From sequence record OL770074.2: DNA of 64,000 nucleotides. One strand, given 5' to 3'. Position numbers and translations under genes: made by a program. Of this stretch, positions 21,361 to 28,911 are shown one piece after another; within the stretch, counting starts at the first letter, position 1, and each line of letters begins with the position of its first letter. Source of the DNA: Escherichia phage vB_EcoM-RPN187. The notes below the pieces were generated by a model. That model did not search any database and had not been told where the DNA came from. It worked only from the letters and a program-made list of their open reading frames with translations.

Positions 21361-21390
21361 ATAGTATCACACATCCATGTGTTTGTAAAC
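21361..21390 (-). promoter_or_regulatory. T4 early-type promoter
   Basis: plus atagtat...(16 nt)...tgtaaac, i.e. minus GTTTACA...ATACTAT, overlapping alt 3' end. Confidence 0.5.
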
Positions 21391-23477
21391 TATCCTTGGA
21401 CAAATTTAAATGGAACTGATTCTAAATCCATTAAAGATGCTAACAATTTCAATCCTTTAGGAGCACTAGTTTTTTCTACAAATGAAGAGAACGATACCGG
21501 CTCATCCGATTCGATTTCACCAGTCATAGCAACCACCTCGCCTGTTTCCATGAGAACATCACCATCGTAAATGACAGCTTCGTCCAACTGGTCTGAGGAC
21601 ATGACTTCAGCTTGAATAAATTTAAGGTTGGATTCTAAACCTGCACCAGTGTCAGATGACGCATCTGTAATTTTATTTATCTGCAAGAGAATGCCTCTAG
21701 GCAAAATAATTTCTTGCTCGTTAGGGTGATTACTCAACTGTCCAGGATAAATCACGTTAACTTTATGGGCGCCATCAATAGCCCATCCAACGTTAACACG
21801 GATTTGGTCTGGTGCATGCATAGCTGTTCTTACTTGACTAGGAGAAATAGTAACACCTTCGTCATTATTATCAATGTTAAGCTCTTTGCGAACTTCTTCA
21901 GGAGCAAGTCCAAGGGCAACGTTCTCTTTAAACCCGCCGAAAATAATAGGAGCTAGTGAAGTGGAAACATAGTTTCTGAAGTAGAATACCTTATTTTTAA
22001 CCATTGCTTCGTAAATAGGCATTCTGATAGACTGAGCTCTATATAACGTTAGTCCTTCAGGTAAACGGTCTCCATTTAAAAACGCCGAATCAAGACCATC
22101 AATAGCGCGTTTAACTTCATCTTCATCTGCAACATCGTAAAAATCTGGTTTATAACGACCTAACAACATATTATTGATATCGGTATACGCAGAAGAGGCA
22201 TATTCACGAATAGCTCGTTTTTCAGCAACAGAGTATTGATTAGGGACCCGATTCATTGTTATATTAAAGGTGCCTCTAGCCGATTCTCGTGCATAAGTAT
22301 ACATCACATTAGACAAGAACGCTGATTTACGCTGTTTCCAAGTTTTTTCAGATACTTCAGCTAAAACGTCGTCAGCCAGTTGGAAATTATCACGTCTAAA
22401 ATCTTCAAACCATTCGTCTTTAATAGAGTCTGCAATTTCATTTGCAGCTTCAACAAAAGCAGCTAATGCTTTAACAGATGTTGTTTTTTCAGTTTTAATT
22501 TTCTTAGCAAACTTTTCTAAAGTTGGCTTAATAACACTACCGTAAGAAACTTCATCAGCAAATCTAAAGGATTCATCAATACGATTATAAATCTTATTTT
22601 CGATATCAGCAACTAAAGTGCCTTTTGCTGTGGACGATGCTTGGGCTAGTACGATTTCATATGCTTCAGGAAGTAATTCGGCTGTAGCTGGGCCACTAAC
22701 TTCTTTAGCAGAATTTTCGTATTTCTGGAATAACTCACCTTCTTGACGGTCAGCTTCTAAAGATTGACTTGCTGCAATAGCACGACGAGAAATTTTAGTA
22801 CGAGCAATAACAGGCTTATCTTTACGTTTTTCTTCTACAGCAGCAATAGAACCAGCGATAGCAGTTTCTTTGGTGACCATTTCACCAGTCTTTTTACTCA
22901 CATAAACTTCGCCAACATCAGAATCTACTTTCGTGTACAACTCTGTGTTAATGTTAGGGATGCCTTTAATATCTTCAATGTTGGCATTTTTACGAACCAT
23001 CATCACATAGGTGTGTTTACCTGTGAATTGATACATTGCCGACAATACTTTAAAACGACCACCGGTTTTAGTAGAAACTAAACGAGCAAGAAGAGTTTGA
23101 AGTTGTTGTCCACGTCCTTTCAATTTCTTTGTAGGGAATCGGAACAGAACTGCATCCATACGAAGAGCTTTAACCTGTTCATATACTGTATTGAAAATGG
23201 TGTTGATTGCATCAATAGGAGCAGGACCAAGGCCGTTTTTCAATTCAGCGAGATTACCCTTTTCAGACAGACTCATAATAACAACATGAGCGTATTTGTC
23301 GCCAAGTTTAACTTGTTTTACAGCATCGCCTTCAGAAAGGTAAGAGAATAAGCGAACTACGATGTTTGTATCAACATCACCAATTTTCCAGACTTGTGGA
23401 ACTTTAGCTTTAGGGTTCAAATTGACGACAGGAAGACTGCCTTCAGATTCAAACACTTCATTTAATTGTTCAGACAT
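21390..23477 (-). CDS. alt: Alt ADP-ribosyltransferase (packaged, modifies host RNA polymerase)
   Basis: 695-aa ORF (T4 Alt 682 aa); position upstream of gene 54 block and downstream of gene 30 as in T4. Confidence 0.85.
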   Translation of the reverse strand: MSEQLNEVFESEGSLPVVNLNPKAKVPQVWKIGDVDTNIVVRLFSYLSEGDAVKQVKLGDKYAHVVIMSLSEKGNLAELKNGLGPAPIDAINTIFNTVYEQVKALRMDAVLFRFPTKKLKGRGQQLQTLLARLVSTKTGGRFKVLSAMYQFTGKHTYVMMVRKNANIEDIKGIPNINTELYTKVDSDVGEVYVSKKTGEMVTKETAIAGSIAAVEEKRKDKPVIARTKISRRAIAASQSLEADRQEGELFQKYENSAKEVSGPATAELLPEAYEIVLAQASSTAKGTLVADIENKIYNRIDESFRFADEVSYGSVIKPTLEKFAKKIKTEKTTSVKALAAFVEAANEIADSIKDEWFEDFRRDNFQLADDVLAEVSEKTWKQRKSAFLSNVMYTYARESARGTFNITMNRVPNQYSVAEKRAIREYASSAYTDINNMLLGRYKPDFYDVADEDEVKRAIDGLDSAFLNGDRLPEGLTLYRAQSIRMPIYEAMVKNKVFYFRNYVSTSLAPIIFGGFKENVALGLAPEEVRKELNIDNNDEGVTISPSQVRTAMHAPDQIRVNVGWAIDGAHKVNVIYPGQLSNHPNEQEIILPRGILLQINKITDASSDTGAGLESNLKFIQAEVMSSDQLDEAVIYDGDVLMETGEVVAMTGEIESDEPVSFSSFVEKTSAPKGLKLLASLMDLESVPFKFVQG

Positions 23478-23517
23478 AGTGTTTTCCTTTTAGTAATAAT
23501 TTATATTTATGCCAAAA

Positions 23518-23533
23518 AGAGCCCGAAGGCTCT
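23518..23533 (-). other. UUCG-tetraloop hairpin upstream of alt
   Basis: AGAGCC-CGAA-GGCTCT on plus (UUCG on minus transcript) followed by T-run. Confidence 0.55.
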
Positions 23534-23721
23534 TAATCCACAATCGGGAGCAAAGTACGATAAACTTCAAAATTAGGGCCTTTTTCGTACCCATTAACGT
23601 TATCTACGAAAACCCGATACGAATTTTCATTAGGAAAATCTAATATAATCTGAGAGCAAGAGGTGGAAACATCTCCACCATCCTTCTTAGCTACAATAAC
23701 TGTTTCTAAATAAGCTTTCAT
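23533..23721 (-). CDS. hypothetical protein
   Basis: 62 aa from MKAYLETV; start overlaps gene 30 stop (TAATG). Confidence 0.4.
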   Translation of the reverse strand: MKAYLETVIVAKKDGGDVSTSCSQIILDFPNENSYRVFVDNVNGYEKGPNFEVYRTLLPIVD

Positions 23722-25214
23722 TATAAACCTGTCTGGGACCACGGTCCAAATACGTCTTCAAATGAATCCGCTTCTGTTTTATCAAAACGGAACCCTTTAA
23801 TAATTGGAAGGAAAATACCTACAGTACCTTCACGGCCTTTAGAATGAACCCAACCATTACATTCACAATCAGCGATACGCCCAATTAATTTACCTTCACG
23901 AGCTTCGGTCATTAATCGTTCACGGTCCAAATCATGACGCTCGTCTAAAGGAATAAGAACCTTTACACCGTCAACTGTTTTATGAGTTGTATCTTTAAAA
24001 CCTGAACCACAATCAGTTGTAATACGACGACAACGTGATACGAGTTCGACACCACCTAATTTGTTAGGGTCTTTAGAGTGTTCATAGTATCCTACAACTT
24101 CTAAAGCGATATCAATAACTTCTTTAAATTTAATTAGGTTCTTAGATCGTTTGTTTTCCCAATATGAATCACGGTTTTTAAGGATAATACCTTCAAGACC
24201 TTGGTCAACATATTTTTTATAAACCGCTTTAGCTTCGTCAAGATTACGAACTAACTGATTTTCAATTGGCTCAATTCGCTTAAAGCCTTCAGCCATATTT
24301 TCAAGAGCAGCAAAACGAACATCGTATTTCTGACCTTTAATTTTGCCATCAGAATAGACTTCATCTAAAGGAACATAGTCCCAGGCTTGAAGAACCATAC
24401 CTTCCGCTTCTTTAGGAGAAATAGTCCCTTGAAGAGATTTATTTGCTAAACCATTTGAAGTGCTACGGTCTGCAACTTGTACTTCTTCTGATTCTTCATT
24501 ATCACCAAATAAGAACGACAGGTCATTTCCTGAGCTCACAGCCTTTTTAATATCAAATGAATGATAAACTAATTCACCGTCGATTAAAACCCCATTAGGG
24601 TGTCTTTCACGAGCTTCTTTAGTCATTTCCATTAGTTCATCCGCTAATAGAGTAAGACCATGGTATTCGTTACCAGCACGAGAAAAGAATTGAACACCAT
24701 CATCGCGAACTTCAGCGAAACAACGAGCACCATCTGCTTTTAATTGGGCAAATGCTGGCCATTTAATATTTTTAGTAATCAATTTCTCATCATATGCAGA
24801 TGCTAACATCTGTGGTTGCAATTGAATAAGTCCAGGCCACACCTTATTCGCGATAGACACTGAAGCACCTACTTCAAGATCGCGCATCATTACACGACGA
24901 AGGACTTCTACATCATCAGGTTTACCATCAGCGATATAACCCATGAGCTCTTTAATTGCAGCGTTACCAGTGAGTTTACGAGTGGCTAATGTGAACTCAA
25001 TAAAATCCAACATGTCATCTAATTCAAGAAGACCATATGCTTGAGACCTTTCACCCGGTCCTGGCCATTTCTTAATATAATACTGGATACCACGTGCATA
25101 TGTTAAACGATACACACGTTCAAGTAATTTGTTGTCCTTATTTTTCTTAAGGATTTCTTGTTTTGTTTTAGTAGAACCGATCGCAGCTATTTTGTTTAAA
25201 ATATCTAAAATCAT
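23721..25214 (-). CDS. 30: ATP-dependent DNA ligase gp30
   Basis: 497-aa ORF; adenylation motif KADGAR; T4 ligase 487 aa. Confidence 0.95.
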   Translation of the reverse strand: MILDILNKIAAIGSTKTKQEILKKNKDNKLLERVYRLTYARGIQYYIKKWPGPGERSQAYGLLELDDMLDFIEFTLATRKLTGNAAIKELMGYIADGKPDDVEVLRRVMMRDLEVGASVSIANKVWPGLIQLQPQMLASAYDEKLITKNIKWPAFAQLKADGARCFAEVRDDGVQFFSRAGNEYHGLTLLADELMEMTKEARERHPNGVLIDGELVYHSFDIKKAVSSGNDLSFLFGDNEESEEVQVADRSTSNGLANKSLQGTISPKEAEGMVLQAWDYVPLDEVYSDGKIKGQKYDVRFAALENMAEGFKRIEPIENQLVRNLDEAKAVYKKYVDQGLEGIILKNRDSYWENKRSKNLIKFKEVIDIALEVVGYYEHSKDPNKLGGVELVSRCRRITTDCGSGFKDTTHKTVDGVKVLIPLDERHDLDRERLMTEAREGKLIGRIADCECNGWVHSKGREGTVGIFLPIIKGFRFDKTEADSFEDVFGPWSQTGL

Positions 25215-25480
25215 TTGATGTCCTCGATTTTGGTTACGGTTCTATTATAAGCCACTTCATCTAGAAGCGATTTCAGCGTTTTCTGATAAGTGGTAATCCA
25301 TTTACCGAGTCCTTCAACATAGTATTCTGAAATGTAGATGAACCCTTGTTCAACACACTCTTTAAATATTTCTGCATCTTTTACTGAACGAAACAACGGC
25401 CAGTCTCGAAAGAACATGTTAACGTGACCGTAGTCACGCGTTGTGTTTTTGCCATCTGTAATATCATGAACTACAAACAT
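25211..25480 (-). CDS. hypothetical protein (T4 30.1 position)
   Basis: 89-aa ORF; ATGA overlap with gene 30 start. Confidence 0.5.
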   Translation of the reverse strand: MFVVHDITDGKNTTRDYGHVNMFFRDWPLFRSVKDAEIFKECVEQGFIYISEYYVEGLGKWITTYQKTLKSLLDEVAYNRTVTKIEDIK

Positions 25481-25489
25481 AATTAACCC

Positions 25490-26305
25490 TTAACAATTTG
25501 TAGACCAAGTCCATTTGGACGAATCTAAAGGAAAGTTTTGAATCGTCCACCATGGCTGCATATCGGTTGGTCCTGGGGTTCGCCAGGTATACGGATTCGA
25601 CGGAGCGCCAATTTGATTAGGCCATGCGCCTGGACTTGTTGTACCAGATTCTTTAAGCAAATCCGCCAATCGTTTTAAAAGGTCTTCATGATCTGAATCT
25701 GAATTATGCTCGGGAGGAACCAAACGAGATTCAATATCATCCCACGTGTGTACACGTTGTGCAGTACGAGGAATGGCATCACGTTCACCACGAGCCAACC
25801 AATAAATCGGTACATTAAGAATTTCTGCTGCATGGTCACAATGATGAGCTAAATCGTCAACGTAACAAATCACGTTATATTTTGTTTTAGCTAGTTCGAA
25901 TAATTGTTCCTTTGAAGAATCATGACCACACATCATTACTTCAGAGAAAGCGCCTGGGAACAAAGCATTCAAATTAAATTGTCTATTCAATCGAGCATCA
26001 ATTGAATCACCTAGCGCCGTCACGGCTACAAAATTATAGTCTTCCTTTAGTTTATTGATAACTCGAAGAGCATCAGAATAAGGCGCTAAGTAACGAATAA
26101 AATCAGAGCGATTATATTTTTCTATTAATTGTTTACCGAGGTTATCGTCGGTATTGAATAGTTTACCAGGAGAAATAAATTTTTCGTCCTGAATCATTTT
26201 TAAAATATGTTCTAATGGAAGATTATATTTTTGGGCAAAATAAGGAAGTCCAGATTGCCAGCTTAAACATACACCATCAATATCAGTTAAAATAGTAGGT
26301 TTCAT
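25490..26305 (-). CDS. HAD-superfamily hydrolase (T4 30.2 position)
   Basis: 271-aa ORF; HAD motif I LTDIDGV near N-terminus; unusual Trp/Pro-rich C-terminal tail. Confidence 0.6.
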   Translation of the reverse strand: MKPTILTDIDGVCLSWQSGLPYFAQKYNLPLEHILKMIQDEKFISPGKLFNTDDNLGKQLIEKYNRSDFIRYLAPYSDALRVINKLKEDYNFVAVTALGDSIDARLNRQFNLNALFPGAFSEVMMCGHDSSKEQLFELAKTKYNVICYVDDLAHHCDHAAEILNVPIYWLARGERDAIPRTAQRVHTWDDIESRLVPPEHNSDSDHEDLLKRLADLLKESGTTSPGAWPNQIGAPSNPYTWRTPGPTDMQPWWTIQNFPLDSSKWTWSTNC

Positions 26306-26754
26306 AAAGAGTCTCTTAATAGGTTTAACACATCAATAAATTCAGCTTCGGTTAGTATTGTATCATCTTTTGTTAGACCGCTAGCCATGCTGTGCTTCAA
26401 AATTTTTCCTTTAGAGGCTTGTAAGGCATCACGAAACCCCTTGTTTTGGATCGCGGCTTCAAAATATGCATTTGTGTATAATTCTTTCCACGCTTCGGAG
26501 TATCTTGAAAATGGAACTCCTAACCAGAAGAGAGTCCCACGGTCCTGAGCTCTTGCATAAGACCTTCCGGCTTGCTGTGCAGCCAATCCAGACAACCTAA
26601 ATATACGTTTTTGTTGTTCAACATTTTTCACCTTACATCCTTGGAGAAATCCTTCAAGTCCTCCGAATTGAATACCATCCATAACAAAAGGCCATTGAGC
26701 AAAGTTACTTAATGCACATGACGGCCATGGAAAATTGCTTCTGATTTCAATCAT
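26302..26754 (-). CDS. hypothetical protein, possible NADAR/YbiA-like domain (T4 30.3 position)
   Basis: 150-aa ORF; N-terminal LSNFAQWPF..DG...F resembles the YbiA/NADAR signature; assignment tentative. Confidence 0.4.
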   Translation of the reverse strand: MIEIRSNFPWPSCALSNFAQWPFVMDGIQFGGLEGFLQGCKVKNVEQQKRIFRLSGLAAQQAGRSYARAQDRGTLFWLGVPFSRYSEAWKELYTNAYFEAAIQNKGFRDALQASKGKILKHSMASGLTKDDTILTEAEFIDVLNLLRDSL

Positions 26755-26945
26755 AGTCTTTTAAGGCTTTTGATAATTTCTAATTCAGAACTCATGCGAA
26801 CGTCTTCAGTTCCATCGACCCATAGGACGGTGTAGGCTTCTTTAATTTGTGTATTACCCAATTTAAAAGCAGGTAGAACCTTGGAAATCATGCCAGGAAT
26901 ACCTACACCTTTTAATTGAACTGTTTGTGATAAGAATAGTTGCAT
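26751..26945 (-). CDS. hypothetical protein
   Basis: 64-aa ORF, ATGA-coupled to neighbours. Confidence 0.45.
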   Translation of the reverse strand: MQLFLSQTVQLKGVGIPGMISKVLPAFKLGNTQIKEAYTVLWVDGTEDVRMSSELEIIKSLKRL

Positions 26946-27232
26946 TAGAACCTCATCTGAAAGCCATGAGATTTAACATTACCACCATAGATGTCAGAGG
27001 TATTGACTTCACGGGCGACACTTGGGTCGATATTGATAACATGGTTGAGCTTAGTGATTGCTAGGGTATCCCGACCATTAACAGTACGGAATTCTACTGG
27101 GCATACAACATCGGCATAAGCCTTAATAGATTCACGAGTAGGTTGTTTGTCGGCAGGAACATCTTTACCCGCTTTAGAGAAAACAACTTCACAGAAATTT
27201 TTACGAGTATCGAAATAAGTGGTCATAAACAT
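26945..27232 (-). CDS. hypothetical protein
   Basis: 95 aa from MFMTTYF (SD GAGGAAAA upstream); the longer track ORF starts inside a hairpin. Confidence 0.45.
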   Translation of the reverse strand: MFMTTYFDTRKNFCEVVFSKAGKDVPADKQPTRESIKAYADVVCPVEFRTVNGRDTLAITKLNHVINIDPSVAREVNTSDIYGGNVKSHGFQMRF

Positions 27233-27247
27233 AATATTTTCCTCAAT

Positions 27248-27263
27248 GGAGGCTTCGGCCTCC
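27248..27263 (-). other. CUUCGG hairpin (intercistronic)
   Basis: GGAGGC-TTCG-GCCTCC followed by ATTTTTA. Confidence 0.5.
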
Positions 27264-27273
27264 ATTTTTAAGA

Positions 27274-27639
27274 TTAGATATCGAATTCGTTAAGAACTAC
27301 ATCAAAGATTGCTTCGAGATGTTCAGGTTTAGCTCGATTGCTCAGGATGTGACGAATCCAAGTTTTAACCAGAAGTTTACGATTAACACCGTTCCAGCAA
27401 GGATGAGTACCTAAATCACGTTGACGGAAATCGTCATCTAATGCAATTTTGAAGTTGGAACCTTCCATCGTGATTGAAACCGTGATGCCATTTTCAAATC
27501 GCATATAAACGTAATTAGGAGTCATATACTGCTCAATTTCGCATACTGAGCCGTTATTATGCTTCCATAAGCAAATTGTATCGATAGAACCAGCGATACA
27601 GTTAGAAACATATTTACGTTCGAAGTTGATGTAGTTCAT
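27274..27639 (-). CDS. hypothetical protein
   Basis: 121-aa ORF. Confidence 0.5.
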   Translation of the reverse strand: MNYINFERKYVSNCIAGSIDTICLWKHNNGSVCEIEQYMTPNYVYMRFENGITVSITMEGSNFKIALDDDFRQRDLGTHPCWNGVNRKLLVKTWIRHILSNRAKPEHLEAIFDVVLNEFDI

Positions 27640-27679
27640 TTTATTCTCCAGATGTTTAAGTTGTTTGTTGGTACAGGTC

Positions 27680-27709
27680 TATAATAACAAAACCTGTACC
27701 AAAGTAAAC
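27680..27709 (-). promoter_or_regulatory. T4 early-type promoter with -10 embedded in an inverted repeat
   Basis: minus GTTTAC-N17-TATTAT; flanking inverted repeat ggtacagg/cctgtacc. Confidence 0.5.
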
Positions 27710-27713
27710 TGTT

Positions 27714-28082
27714 TTATGCAACTTTAATCCAATTGCCTAAATTTAAAACACCTTTGGCTTTCATTTTTTCGATCAGGTTATCTGCTGTAATGCGTCCATT
27801 TTGATACCATGTAACATCTTCAGAGTAACCAGTTTCTTCGTCAACATATGTTTCTGAGCGAATTTTACCGGTAATAATAGTTTTTAATTCGTATGTGTCA
27901 CCAGTGAAAAAGTTTGCTAACACAATTTTCCAAGAGAAATCATTTGAAGGACCTTCAGGGGTCATACAACTTATGAACTCAAATTGCTCTTTGTATAACA
28001 TCCACTGGAATTCTTTAATTTCGATAGCTTTATAACCGTCGTGGTCTTTACATTTGATGTATGAGTTCAGATTGATTTTCAT
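27714..28082 (-). CDS. hypothetical protein
   Basis: 122-aa ORF. Confidence 0.5.
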   Translation of the reverse strand: MKINLNSYIKCKDHDGYKAIEIKEFQWMLYKEQFEFISCMTPEGPSNDFSWKIVLANFFTGDTYELKTIITGKIRSETYVDEETGYSEDVTWYQNGRITADNLIEKMKAKGVLNLGNWIKVA

Positions 28083-28123
28083 TTTATTCTCCGGTTGTTT
28101 TATTGATTAGGTGGTACAAGTCT

Positions 28124-28153
28124 ATAGTAACACATCCTACAGGAGAGTAAACA
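28124..28153 (-). promoter_or_regulatory. T4 early-type promoter
   Basis: minus GTTTAC-N17-TACTAT. Confidence 0.5.
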
Positions 28154-28189
28154 TCTTTTTTAAACTTTTTCTGCCCTAAACGCACAAAA

Positions 28190-28207
28190 GGGAGACCGAA
28201 GTCTCCC
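28190..28207 (-). terminator. CUUCGG tetraloop hairpin terminator
   Basis: GGGAGA-CCGAAG-TCTCCC (identical 18-mer family) downstream of small ORF stop, followed by T-rich tract on minus. Confidence 0.7.
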
Positions 28208-28212
28208 TAAAA

Positions 28213-28392
28213 TTATGCAACAACCTTTCCAAAACGAGAAGCATCATCTCGAAGAACTGCACGTGCTCTGCGCATGATCTTCTCAACTGTTTGATTAATA
28301 CGAGAGTTCGACCCACGCTTGTATCCAGCGCGTTTAGAGGTACCATCAACTTTCTTTTCTACTGCTTTCTTTGCTTTAGCTTGTTTTGCCAT
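28213..28392 (-). CDS. small basic Lys/Arg-rich protein (hypothetical, not in ORF track)
   Basis: 59-aa ORF MAKQAKAKKAVEKKVDGTSKRAGYKRGSNSRINQTVEKIMRRARAVLRDDASRFGKVVA; terminator hairpin immediately downstream. Confidence 0.45.
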   Translation of the reverse strand: MAKQAKAKKAVEKKVDGTSKRAGYKRGSNSRINQTVEKIMRRARAVLRDDASRFGKVVA

Positions 28393-28662
28393 TATAAATT
28401 CTCTTTAAATGAAAATGCAGGACTTATTGACATTGCCTGCTCAAGCCCTCAAGGGGAACATAGGTTTTTGAATATTTAACGACCAGGATAACCATAAACC
28501 CGTCATCATACCTACCACGACTTAGACAGATAACCTTTTTCTGACGCGTGATAGTACAAAATACATTCAAGAGGTACACCGTAAAATTGTCGGGGCGGTA
28601 CTTCTAAAACATACCGATTCGCAAATCGATAATCAGACAATTCGACGGCTCCTCGATTTAAC

Positions 28663-28911
28663 TTACTTCAGGGTAATAACAAAATGACGAACTGCTTTAC
28701 GTGCTGCAGAAGCCAGAGGCTTAGCATATTTCAATTCATCTTTCTGGACCAGGATATCACGAAGATCAGCTTGTGCTGGATTCAGATGTTTGAAATACTG
28801 TAAGATTTCAAGAGCTTCGGCTTCAACATCAATAGATGCACCGTAATTTTCATGGCCATTATTCCATGCATGGCGTTGCAGTTCAAGAGCGTGTTGTAAT
28901 TGTTTAATCAT
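28663..28911 (-). CDS. rIII: rIII lysis-inhibition accessory protein
   Basis: 82-aa ORF (T4 rIII 82 aa); position just upstream of gene 31. Confidence 0.8.
   Translation of the reverse strand: MIKQLQHALELQRHAWNNGHENYGASIDVEAEALEILQYFKHLNPAQADLRDILVQKDELKYAKPLASAARKAVRHFVITLK

Follow-up and report, generated by a model that had tools for sequence, protein, structure and literature searches.

The interval from position 25,490 to 26,754 of the 64,000-nucleotide stretch of Escherichia phage vB_EcoM-RPN187 analysed here (record OL770074.2; hereafter the window) very probably holds two independent early genes, one encoding gp30.3, the anti-DarT factor AdfN, and the other gp30.2, a HAD phosphatase with a probable tail tether. 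Both are ordinary early genes of the T4 type. For gp30.3, the original prediction of a NADAR-like protein acting against DarT-type toxins, made from a twelve-residue signature, is correct but was already known: the AdfN chemistry was published in 2024–2025 for a T4 orthologue that is 95% identical, and therefore nothing new is claimed for this protein. What is new concerns 30.2, a widespread gene that has a copy in 1444 phage records and is still called hypothetical in genome annotations. We place its product, as read here, in a branch that has diverged within the 5'(3')-deoxyribonucleotidases and find it tied more tightly to DNA ligase than to NADAR. Together, this placement, the ligase tie, and the motifs of the gp30.2 tail lead to a concrete substrate panel and to interaction tests.

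The DNA belongs to a T4-like coliphage (Tequatrovirus). The 2 kb around 30.2 and 30.3 matched 746 phage records, with a best identity of 98% and mostly from Escherichia and Shigella phages of the Tequatrovirus type, and for each of the two proteins the homologues ran into the hundreds (30.2, E = 1.7e-178; 30.3, E = 1.5e-90). Two ORFs, both on the minus strand, fill the interval exactly (Table 1), and the minus-strand gene order around them is the same as that of T4 (alt, alt.1, 30, 30.1, 30.2, 30.3, 30.5, 30.6, 30.7, 30.8, 30.9, rIII, 31, cd). Because these genes are translated right to left, the order on the coding strand runs from 30.3 through 30.2 and 30.1 to 30 (ligase), alt.1, and alt, so that 30.3 and 30.2 lie upstream of ligase; the original prediction had put them directly downstream of it, which holds in plus-strand coordinates but not on the coding strand. 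The 30.3 stop codon and the 30.2 start codon share the sequence ATGA, an overlap of the same kind joins 30.3 to the ORF just upstream of it, and stop/start overlaps are the general rule across this gene block. A scan of positions 23400–28700 for promoters and terminators gave a number of sites not above that in shuffled sequence. Separately, the internal out-of-frame gene 30.3' that is annotated in T4 was rejected as a conserved gene, with stop codons breaking its frame here.

Table 1. Genes, domains, and motifs in and next to the studied interval; positions are those of the window
Feature	Position	Strand	Description
alt	21390-23477	minus	T4-like gene order
Gene 30, ATP-dependent DNA ligase	23721..25214	minus	Pfam PF01068, E = 1.2e-26; conserved downstream neighbour of 30.2
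Gene 30.1	25211..25480	minus	DUF3045; Pfam PF11243, E = 1.4e-26
Gene 30.2	25490-26305	minus	ORF of 271 aa
gp30.2 C-terminal tail	25493..25720	minus	Residues 196-271; helix 203-221, then disordered Trp/Pro-rich stretch
Tail motif TWRTPGPTDMQPWW	25547..25588	minus	gp30.2 residues 240-253
Gene 30.2 catalytic core	25721..26305	minus	Residues 1-195; predicted C1-capped HAD phosphatase related to NT5C
HAD motif I, DIDGV	26270..26284	minus	gp30.2 residues 8-12
Gene 30.3 = adfN (anti-DarT factor NADAR)	26302..26754	minus	150 aa, full length; Pfam PF08010
His121, last beta-strand of gp30.3	26392..26394	minus	Phage-NADAR marker residue
Catalytic Glu34 and Lys41 of gp30.3 (LEGFLQGCK)	26632..26655	minus	Equivalent to T4 AdfN E36 and K43
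N-terminal NADAR signature SNFAQWPFVMDG	26674..26709	minus	gp30.3 residues 16-27

At the level of sequence families, gp30.3 matched Pfam PF08010 (Phage_30_3), which Pfam lists apart from its NADAR family, at 229.9 bits (cut-off 36; E = 1e-68) across profile positions 2–138 of 138. Pairwise alignment with T4 gp30.3, which UniProt names NADAR_BPT4, ‘Anti-DarT factor NADAR’, gave 95% identity over 149 residues, gap-free to the last residue, and a residue offset of 2 between the two proteins. The profile-HMM search that had been proposed as a check of the NADAR and HAD assignments returned a divided answer, with the PF08010 match on one side and, on the other, no match at E <= 1 between this phage's gp30.3 and the Pfam NADAR profile (PF08719) and, for gp30.2, a HAD_2 score below its cut-off. 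Among ten gp30.3 relatives, two matched PF08719 (best E = 0.047). In NCBIfam, the riboflavin N-glycosidase model TIGR02464 was weakly matched by gp30.3 (E = 0.095); a single-sequence search of the PDB found E. coli YbiA as the sole match (E = 0.25), and a profile built from ten family members found YbiA again, and only YbiA, at E = 8.7e-4. Because the Pfam NADAR profile is not significant, the NADAR membership of gp30.3 rests on its fold, its active site, and published biochemistry.

The AF2 model of gp30.3 (mean pLDDT 81.6, pTM 0.81) has hairpins at residues 23–30 and 74–83 with helices between them. When this model was searched with Foldseek against 350,542 PDB chains, the top three matches were the three solved NADAR structures, i.e., YbiA 2b3w (E = 2e-4, probability 1.00), the G. 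lovleyi NADAR 8bat (probability 0.97), and the Phytophthora NADAR 8bau (probability 0.82), while all remaining PDB matches had probabilities <= 0.04; structure prediction, the second proposed check, accordingly bore out the NADAR/YbiA fold. The N-terminal signature from which the NADAR idea had started, SNFAQWPFVMDG, is present, with FSNFAAWPIKVDG of YbiA (E. coli, 2b3w) as its aligned counterpart, and the family alignment (A3) shows no variation at S16, N17, F18, D26, and G27 of the signature. In the same alignment E34 is invariant, K41 is nearly so, and H121, which sits in model strand 119–122, is invariant, so that the catalytic Glu, Lys, and His are all kept. The C-terminal helix is intact as well, with a model helix at residues 136–149 and a T4 alignment that reaches the last residue.

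Much is published on the T4 orthologue of this protein. Johannesman, Carlson, and LeRoux traced the DarTG1 resistance of T-even phages to gene 30.3, which they renamed adfN; once it was deleted, T2 and T4 became sensitive to DarTG1 by about four logs, AdfN supplied in trans, alone, rescued RB69, the T4 AdfN substitutions E36A and K43A abolished that rescue, and purified AdfN alone stripped ADP-ribose from DarT1-modified DNA (PMC11257639). The RB69 allele, which is without the last 15 residues, is inactive, and protection by AdfN from DarTG1 is on record for T2, T4, and RB69 chimeras (PMC11257639). The anti-DarT role that had been suggested for the interval is therefore established for the T4 orthologue, a DNA ADP-ribosylglycohydrolase both required and sufficient to overcome DarTG1, and the proposed plating of a deletion mutant on DarTG hosts had already been done in T2 and T4 with the result foreseen (PMC11257639). 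Activity of T4 gp30.3 in vitro was also shown by an independent group (PMC11125620), and a preprint based on transposon sequencing found 30.3/adfN to be essential only in the presence of DarTG1, with insertion loss on DarTG1 reported for 30.3/adfN only and 30.2 left unmentioned (10.1101/2025.11.20.689424).

By its sequence, the 150-aa gp30.3 of the interval is this published AdfN, which would strip ADP-ribose off phage DNA and so counter DarTG1. We infer the activity of this phage's protein from the 95% identity, the kept Glu34, Lys41, and His121, and the intact C-terminal helix. In the proposed sequence of events, the host DarT1 toxin would ADP-ribosylate guanines of the replicating phage DNA, and AdfN would hydrolyse the ribose–guanine bond, releasing ADP-ribose and leaving the base intact; with the base restored, replication would continue and the DarTG1 defence would fail. 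Because gp30.3 is full length and carries every residue known to be critical, the phage is predicted to be resistant to DarTG1.

For gp30.2, the HAD motif I that had been recognised in the original prediction, DIDGV, is present at residues 8–12, and the four catalytic motifs are conserved: D8-x-D10 (motif I), T96 (motif II), K132 (motif III), and D150-D151 (motif IV) are invariant or nearly so in 36 close relatives, and among 79 distant relatives D8, D10, and K132 are invariant, with T96 and D151 nearly so. R108, N111, and W16 are likewise kept in the alignments of both close and distant relatives. With DxD in motif I and all four catalytic motifs in place, gp30.2 is, judged from these motifs, a phosphatase- rather than a dehalogenase-type HAD protein. 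Its core was confidently modelled and has the Rossmann-like HAD core fold, in keeping with the earlier HAD assignment, and four helices inserted between motif I and the strand of motif II form a C1 cap. In HAD enzymes a C1 cap goes with small substrates, and polynucleotide phosphatases are capless; a C1 cap closing over the gp30.2 site therefore suggests a small-molecule substrate. By analogy with HAD chemistry, gp30.2 would be a Mg-dependent phosphomonoesterase of the HAD superfamily, in which Asp8 would serve as the nucleophile that forms a phospho-aspartyl intermediate and Asp10 as the acid/base, while phosphate binding would fall to Thr96, Lys132, and probably Arg108, and metal binding to Asp150/151.

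Placing this enzyme within the superfamily called for family-wide comparisons. Against Pfam and NCBIfam HAD models, gp30.2 scored nowhere above cut-off (HAD_2 at 15.5 bits with a cut-off of 23.8; TIGR01428 at 12.8 with a cut-off of 125.4), single-sequence NCBIfam scans reached E ~0.09 at best for gp30.2 and gp30.3 alike, and a close-family gp30.2 profile searched against PDB sequences was uninformative (amidase 0.11, cdN 0.64); the gp30.2 family is too diverged for generic HAD models. An exhaustive search of 1.84 billion representatives with the family profile yielded 1042 relatives. When 79 proteins (78 distant relatives and this phage's gp30.2) were scanned with Pfam, NT5C (PF06941) was the family most often matched, by 26 of the 79 and with a best E of 4.2e-10. 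The PF06941 cut-off was passed, over the full length, by three of ten sampled distant relatives, and one distant viral homologue (L076) matched NT5C at 24.0 bits; among 36 close relatives six matched, all below threshold, and this phage's gp30.2 itself had no PF06941 match. In a profile comparison, hhalign aligned the T4-like gp30.2 family with a relative that scores 33.8 bits on PF06941 (P0237) at 99.2% probability (E = 1.5e-19, 184 columns). With the extended gp30.2 profile, the best PDB match was the putative 5'(3')-deoxyribonucleotidase 3bwv (E = 6.6e-7, full length), and the next matches, SSM1/Sdt1, XMP phosphatase, mdN, and cdN, are nucleotide phosphatases. On our reading, gp30.2 represents a diverged lineage among the NT5C-type 5'(3')-deoxyribonucleotidases, the substrate being a prediction only. 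Because its nearest named relatives are NT5C-type, a nucleoside monophosphate appears the likeliest substrate, an assignment to which we give about an even chance. A point against this assignment is that no nucleotidase role is known in T4 nucleotide metabolism. A search for gp30.2 in the available literature found no paper and no biochemical data on any homologue.

The odd Trp/Pro-rich tail that had been remarked on in gp30.2 is a distinct feature of the protein, with 6 Trp and 10 Pro in the 76 residues from 196 to 271. Tryptophan makes up 7.9% of this tail versus 1.3% of the long ORFs of the window (six times), and of 12,769 segments as long as the tail (76 residues), taken from the 47 ORFs that have 150 aa or more (gp30.2 included), five reach 6 Trp. 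From residue 221 onwards the model has a mean pLDDT per 10-residue block of 33–54. Tail length varies widely among 99 family members, at <=25 aa in 37 and >60 aa in 50 of them. The tail pattern W[RV][TN]PGP[ST]D..PW[WY] recurs in Klebsiella-phage homologues whose core is only ~50% identical, with TWRTPGPTDMQPWW of this phage's gp30.2 corresponding to KWVNPGPSDLKPWY in those homologues, and many tails of the family, that of T4 included, end in GTGIEYLxxQPT. A search for the gp30.2 tail motifs in the other ORFs of the window found none. At the DNA level, the tail is a mosaic relative to T4 with one conserved island (TWRTPG, in TWRTPGPTDMQPWW), and on this pattern the idea that it is a frameshifted T4 tail was rejected.

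Because conserved short motifs lie inside a disordered and fast-changing segment, a docking function is suggested for the tail, which probably anchors gp30.2 on some partner protein. A more elaborate version, in which gp30.2 would be an uncharacterised nucleotidase docked by its tail on a replication or repair partner, where it would edit the nucleotide pool or counter host defence, is speculative and, taken as a whole, unlikely.

The neighbourhood of 30.2 was sampled at 78 related loci on viral contigs. At 70 of the 75 loci with enough flank, the 30.2 homologue is followed by a same-strand ligase gene no more than 2.2 kb downstream, and the order 30.2 – (30.1) – ligase spans phages from coliphages to those of Acinetobacter, Aeromonas, and Vibrio. 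A gp30.3-type NADAR, detected by iterated HMM, lies within 2.2 kb upstream of 30.2 at 37 of 76 loci. Since 70 of 75 stands against 37 of 76, the conserved pairing is that of 30.2 with ligase and not that of NADAR with either. Klebsiella and Enterobacter phages carry both NADAR and 30.2 genes, and in Citrobacter phage CF1 NADAR is found at ~69 kb and 30.2 at ~129 kb, tens of kb apart. Across 50,697 phage records, a gp30.3-type gene was present in 1510 and 30.2 in 1444, with nearly the same taxonomic spread.

Nothing indicates that gp30.3 and gp30.2 need each other, or the ligase, for their function. The original prediction had envisaged a ligase-linked NADAR module for DNA repair or anti-defence, and this part was not supported: AdfN acts alone and leaves no nick, and NADAR is beside 30.2 in 37 of 76 loci. 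A ligase step would not be needed, because AdfN restores the base without a break in the backbone. Every NADAR located near 30.2 lies upstream of it and in the same orientation, in many cases with a stop/start overlap between the two, and because of this constancy a weak functional tie between NADAR and 30.2 is conceivable.

A stronger form of such a tie, in which gp30.3 and gp30.2 make up one translationally coupled module and the HAD enzyme processes a product or side-product of the NADAR reaction or supplies its substrate, would fit the ATGA overlap of the 30.3 stop and 30.2 start, the fixed upstream and same-strand position of nearby NADARs (zero gap in 15 loci), and the near-equal spread of the two genes (1510 versus 1444 records). 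We consider it very unlikely, given that AdfN is active by itself both in vitro and when supplied in trans (PMC11257639), that DarTG1-dependent insertion loss was reported for 30.3/adfN only, with 30.2 unmentioned (10.1101/2025.11.20.689424), and that 39 of 76 loci have lost the adjacency while the phage groups concerned still carry both genes; moreover, the overlap is of a kind general in this gene block, and a shared spread is as expected of any two genes common to one phage family. Also weighed was a gp30.3 that acts mainly on small molecules (riboflavin intermediates, as for YbiA, or soluble ADP-ribose signals) with its DNA activity secondary. YbiA is indeed the closest solved structure and the sole sequence-level PDB match, the riboflavin N-glycosidase model TIGR02464 is weakly matched (E = 0.095), and a survey from 2022 gave soluble ADP-ribose derivatives as the predicted targets of phage NADARs (PMC9503650), but loss of adfN makes T2 and T4 DarTG1-sensitive by four logs and catalytic mutants lose rescue (PMC11257639), the purified protein de-ADP-ribosylates DNA (PMC11257639, PMC11125620), and the gene is conditionally essential only with DarTG1 (10.1101/2025.11.20.689424), all of which leaves a mainly small-molecule role extremely improbable. 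AdfN acting on DNA remains the preferred reading of gp30.3.

For gp30.2, the order 30.2 – (30.1) – ligase kept in 70 of 75 loci, together with a weak HAD_PNKP match of one distant relative (E = 0.0032), could point to an end-healing 3'-phosphatase that prepares DNA or RNA ends for ligase in the manner of the phosphatase domain of polynucleotide kinase. Such an enzyme is highly improbable here, in view of the model's closed four-helix C1 cap, polynucleotide phosphatases being capless, and of a PNKP profile touched by 1 of the 79 scanned members as against 26 for NT5C. T4-type phages, moreover, already carry PseT for end healing. A phosphatase for a non-nucleotide metabolite, e.g., a sugar phosphate, has a somewhat better claim: structure searches with gp30.2 gave a flat plateau over many C1-capped HADs, including beta-phosphoglucomutase-like proteins and phosphoglycolate phosphatases, one gp30.2 homologue bears the JGI label ‘FMN phosphatase YigB’, and RB69 gp51, a different HAD protein that is structurally closest to a ‘putative 5'(3')-deoxyribonucleotidase’, was assigned arabinose-phosphate chemistry (PMC13326640). 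Yet NT5C is the nearest named family by sequence, the relatives of solved structure that score best all belong to the nucleotide phosphatases (3bwv, SSM1/Sdt1, XMP phosphatase, mdN, and cdN), and 30.2 sits among DNA-metabolism genes rather than sugar-modification genes, so we regard a non-nucleotide substrate as possible but on the unlikely side, and keep to the NT5C-type branch as our reading of gp30.2.

Compared with T4 AdfN (UniProt NADAR_BPT4), gp30.3 has the same place directly upstream of 30.2, agrees in the catalytic Glu and Lys and in the last-strand His, and likewise has a full-length C-terminal helix; it differs by seven substitutions in the 149-residue alignment, none of them at a residue known to matter, and by an N-terminus two residues shorter. 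With the DarG1/DarT1-associated NADARs (8bat, E. coli C7 NADAR) and YbiA (2b3w) it shares the fold and, going by published work, the guanine de-ADP-ribosylating chemistry, whereas its sequence similarity to them is marginal (E = 8.7e-4 with the family profile) and its last-strand catalytic residue is His instead of their Asp or Glu, this position being His in phage NADARs, Glu in YbiA, and Asp in DarT-linked NADARs (PMC11125620, PMC11543638). At 150 aa, gp30.3 is also without the fold extensions of the DarT-linked NADARs (189–219 aa) and, unlike them, the phage protein is an orphan without a toxin partner. In uninfected cells, phage AdfN had no neutralising effect on DarT1 (PMC11257639).

T4 gp30.2, a hypothetical protein of PHROG 420, is the orthologue of this phage's gp30.2 (which matches PHROG 420 at E = 3.3e-78) in the same position and is 70% identical overall, with T4-type phages at ~87% over residues 1–195. 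The tail, in contrast, is largely replaced: the terminal GGIEYLYNRPT of T4 and many relatives is absent from this phage's protein, and the TWRTPG island alone is common to both. Relative to NT5C (PF06941; human/mouse cdN and mdN; S. epidermidis 3bwv), the T4-like branch has invariants of its own (W16, S18, N65, S67, R108, N111, and R172) and often a long disordered tail, for which the matched solved cellular enzymes (168–200 aa) have no room, but it shares with them the C1-capped HAD fold, a motif I that runs DxDGV, aromatic residue, SGL, and a similar spacing of motifs II–IV.

Truncated variants of gp30.3, the NADAR-fold enzyme AdfN, are numerous in public data (among the protein homologues P0106 and P0112-P0121), and in other members of the same set the N-terminal part of gp30.3 is fused to 30.7, 30.8 or a PF11097 protein. 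These variants resemble natural deletions that run through adfN; phages carrying a truncated or fused gp30.3 should be sensitive to DarTG1. Further gp30.3-type NADARs, at 33-39% identity, occur in Sinorhizobium phages phiM12 and phiM9 and in Agrobacterium phage OLIVR6, where the match falls on a feature annotated as a "homing endonuclease". Automatic annotation could be misled by the 90%-identity cluster containing the window gp30.3, which includes gp30.2 proteins of 278-284 aa and has a gp30.2 protein as its representative, apparently because the clustering ran together the products of an overlapping gene pair.

Features compared with T4 or with distant relatives
Feature	Location	Strand	Comparison
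Frame of T4 30.3' within 30.3	window 26397-26624	-	T4 annotation compared with window
alt (Alt ADP-ribosyltransferase)	window 21390-23477	-	41% identity to T4 Alt
T4 30.5 homologue	window 26751-26945	-	67% identity to T4 30.5
gp30.2 C-terminal tail	window 25493-25720	-	compared with tails of relatives
gp30.2 homologue, then UvsX-type recombinase	L071 6001-6645 and 6837-7709		37% identity for gp30.2 homologue

The T4 annotation places 30.3', an internal out-of-frame gene, inside 30.3. In the window, stop codons interrupt its frame and leave pieces of only 34 and 24 codons, despite conservation of the DNA. This argues against 30.3' as a real gene, and we rejected it as a conserved gene. Immediately upstream of 30.3 lies the 30.5 homologue; T4 30.4 found no match anywhere in the window, and vB_EcoM-RPN187 therefore lacks 30.4.

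In L071, a 151-kb viral contig, the distant gp30.2 homologue is followed by a UvsX-type recombinase rather than ligase. Many gp30.2 relatives end in a conserved GTGIEYLxxQPT motif and other clades in an ANDDS-type acidic tip; the tails would seem to be interchangeable docking segments. T4 gp30.2 carries the GTGIEYLxxQPT ending, whereas the vB_EcoM-RPN187 protein has lost it. Matches to T4 alt.-1 and alt.-2 were confined to alt itself in the window, and the divergence of Alt from T4 Alt, at just 41% identity, is far above that of the neighbouring genes.
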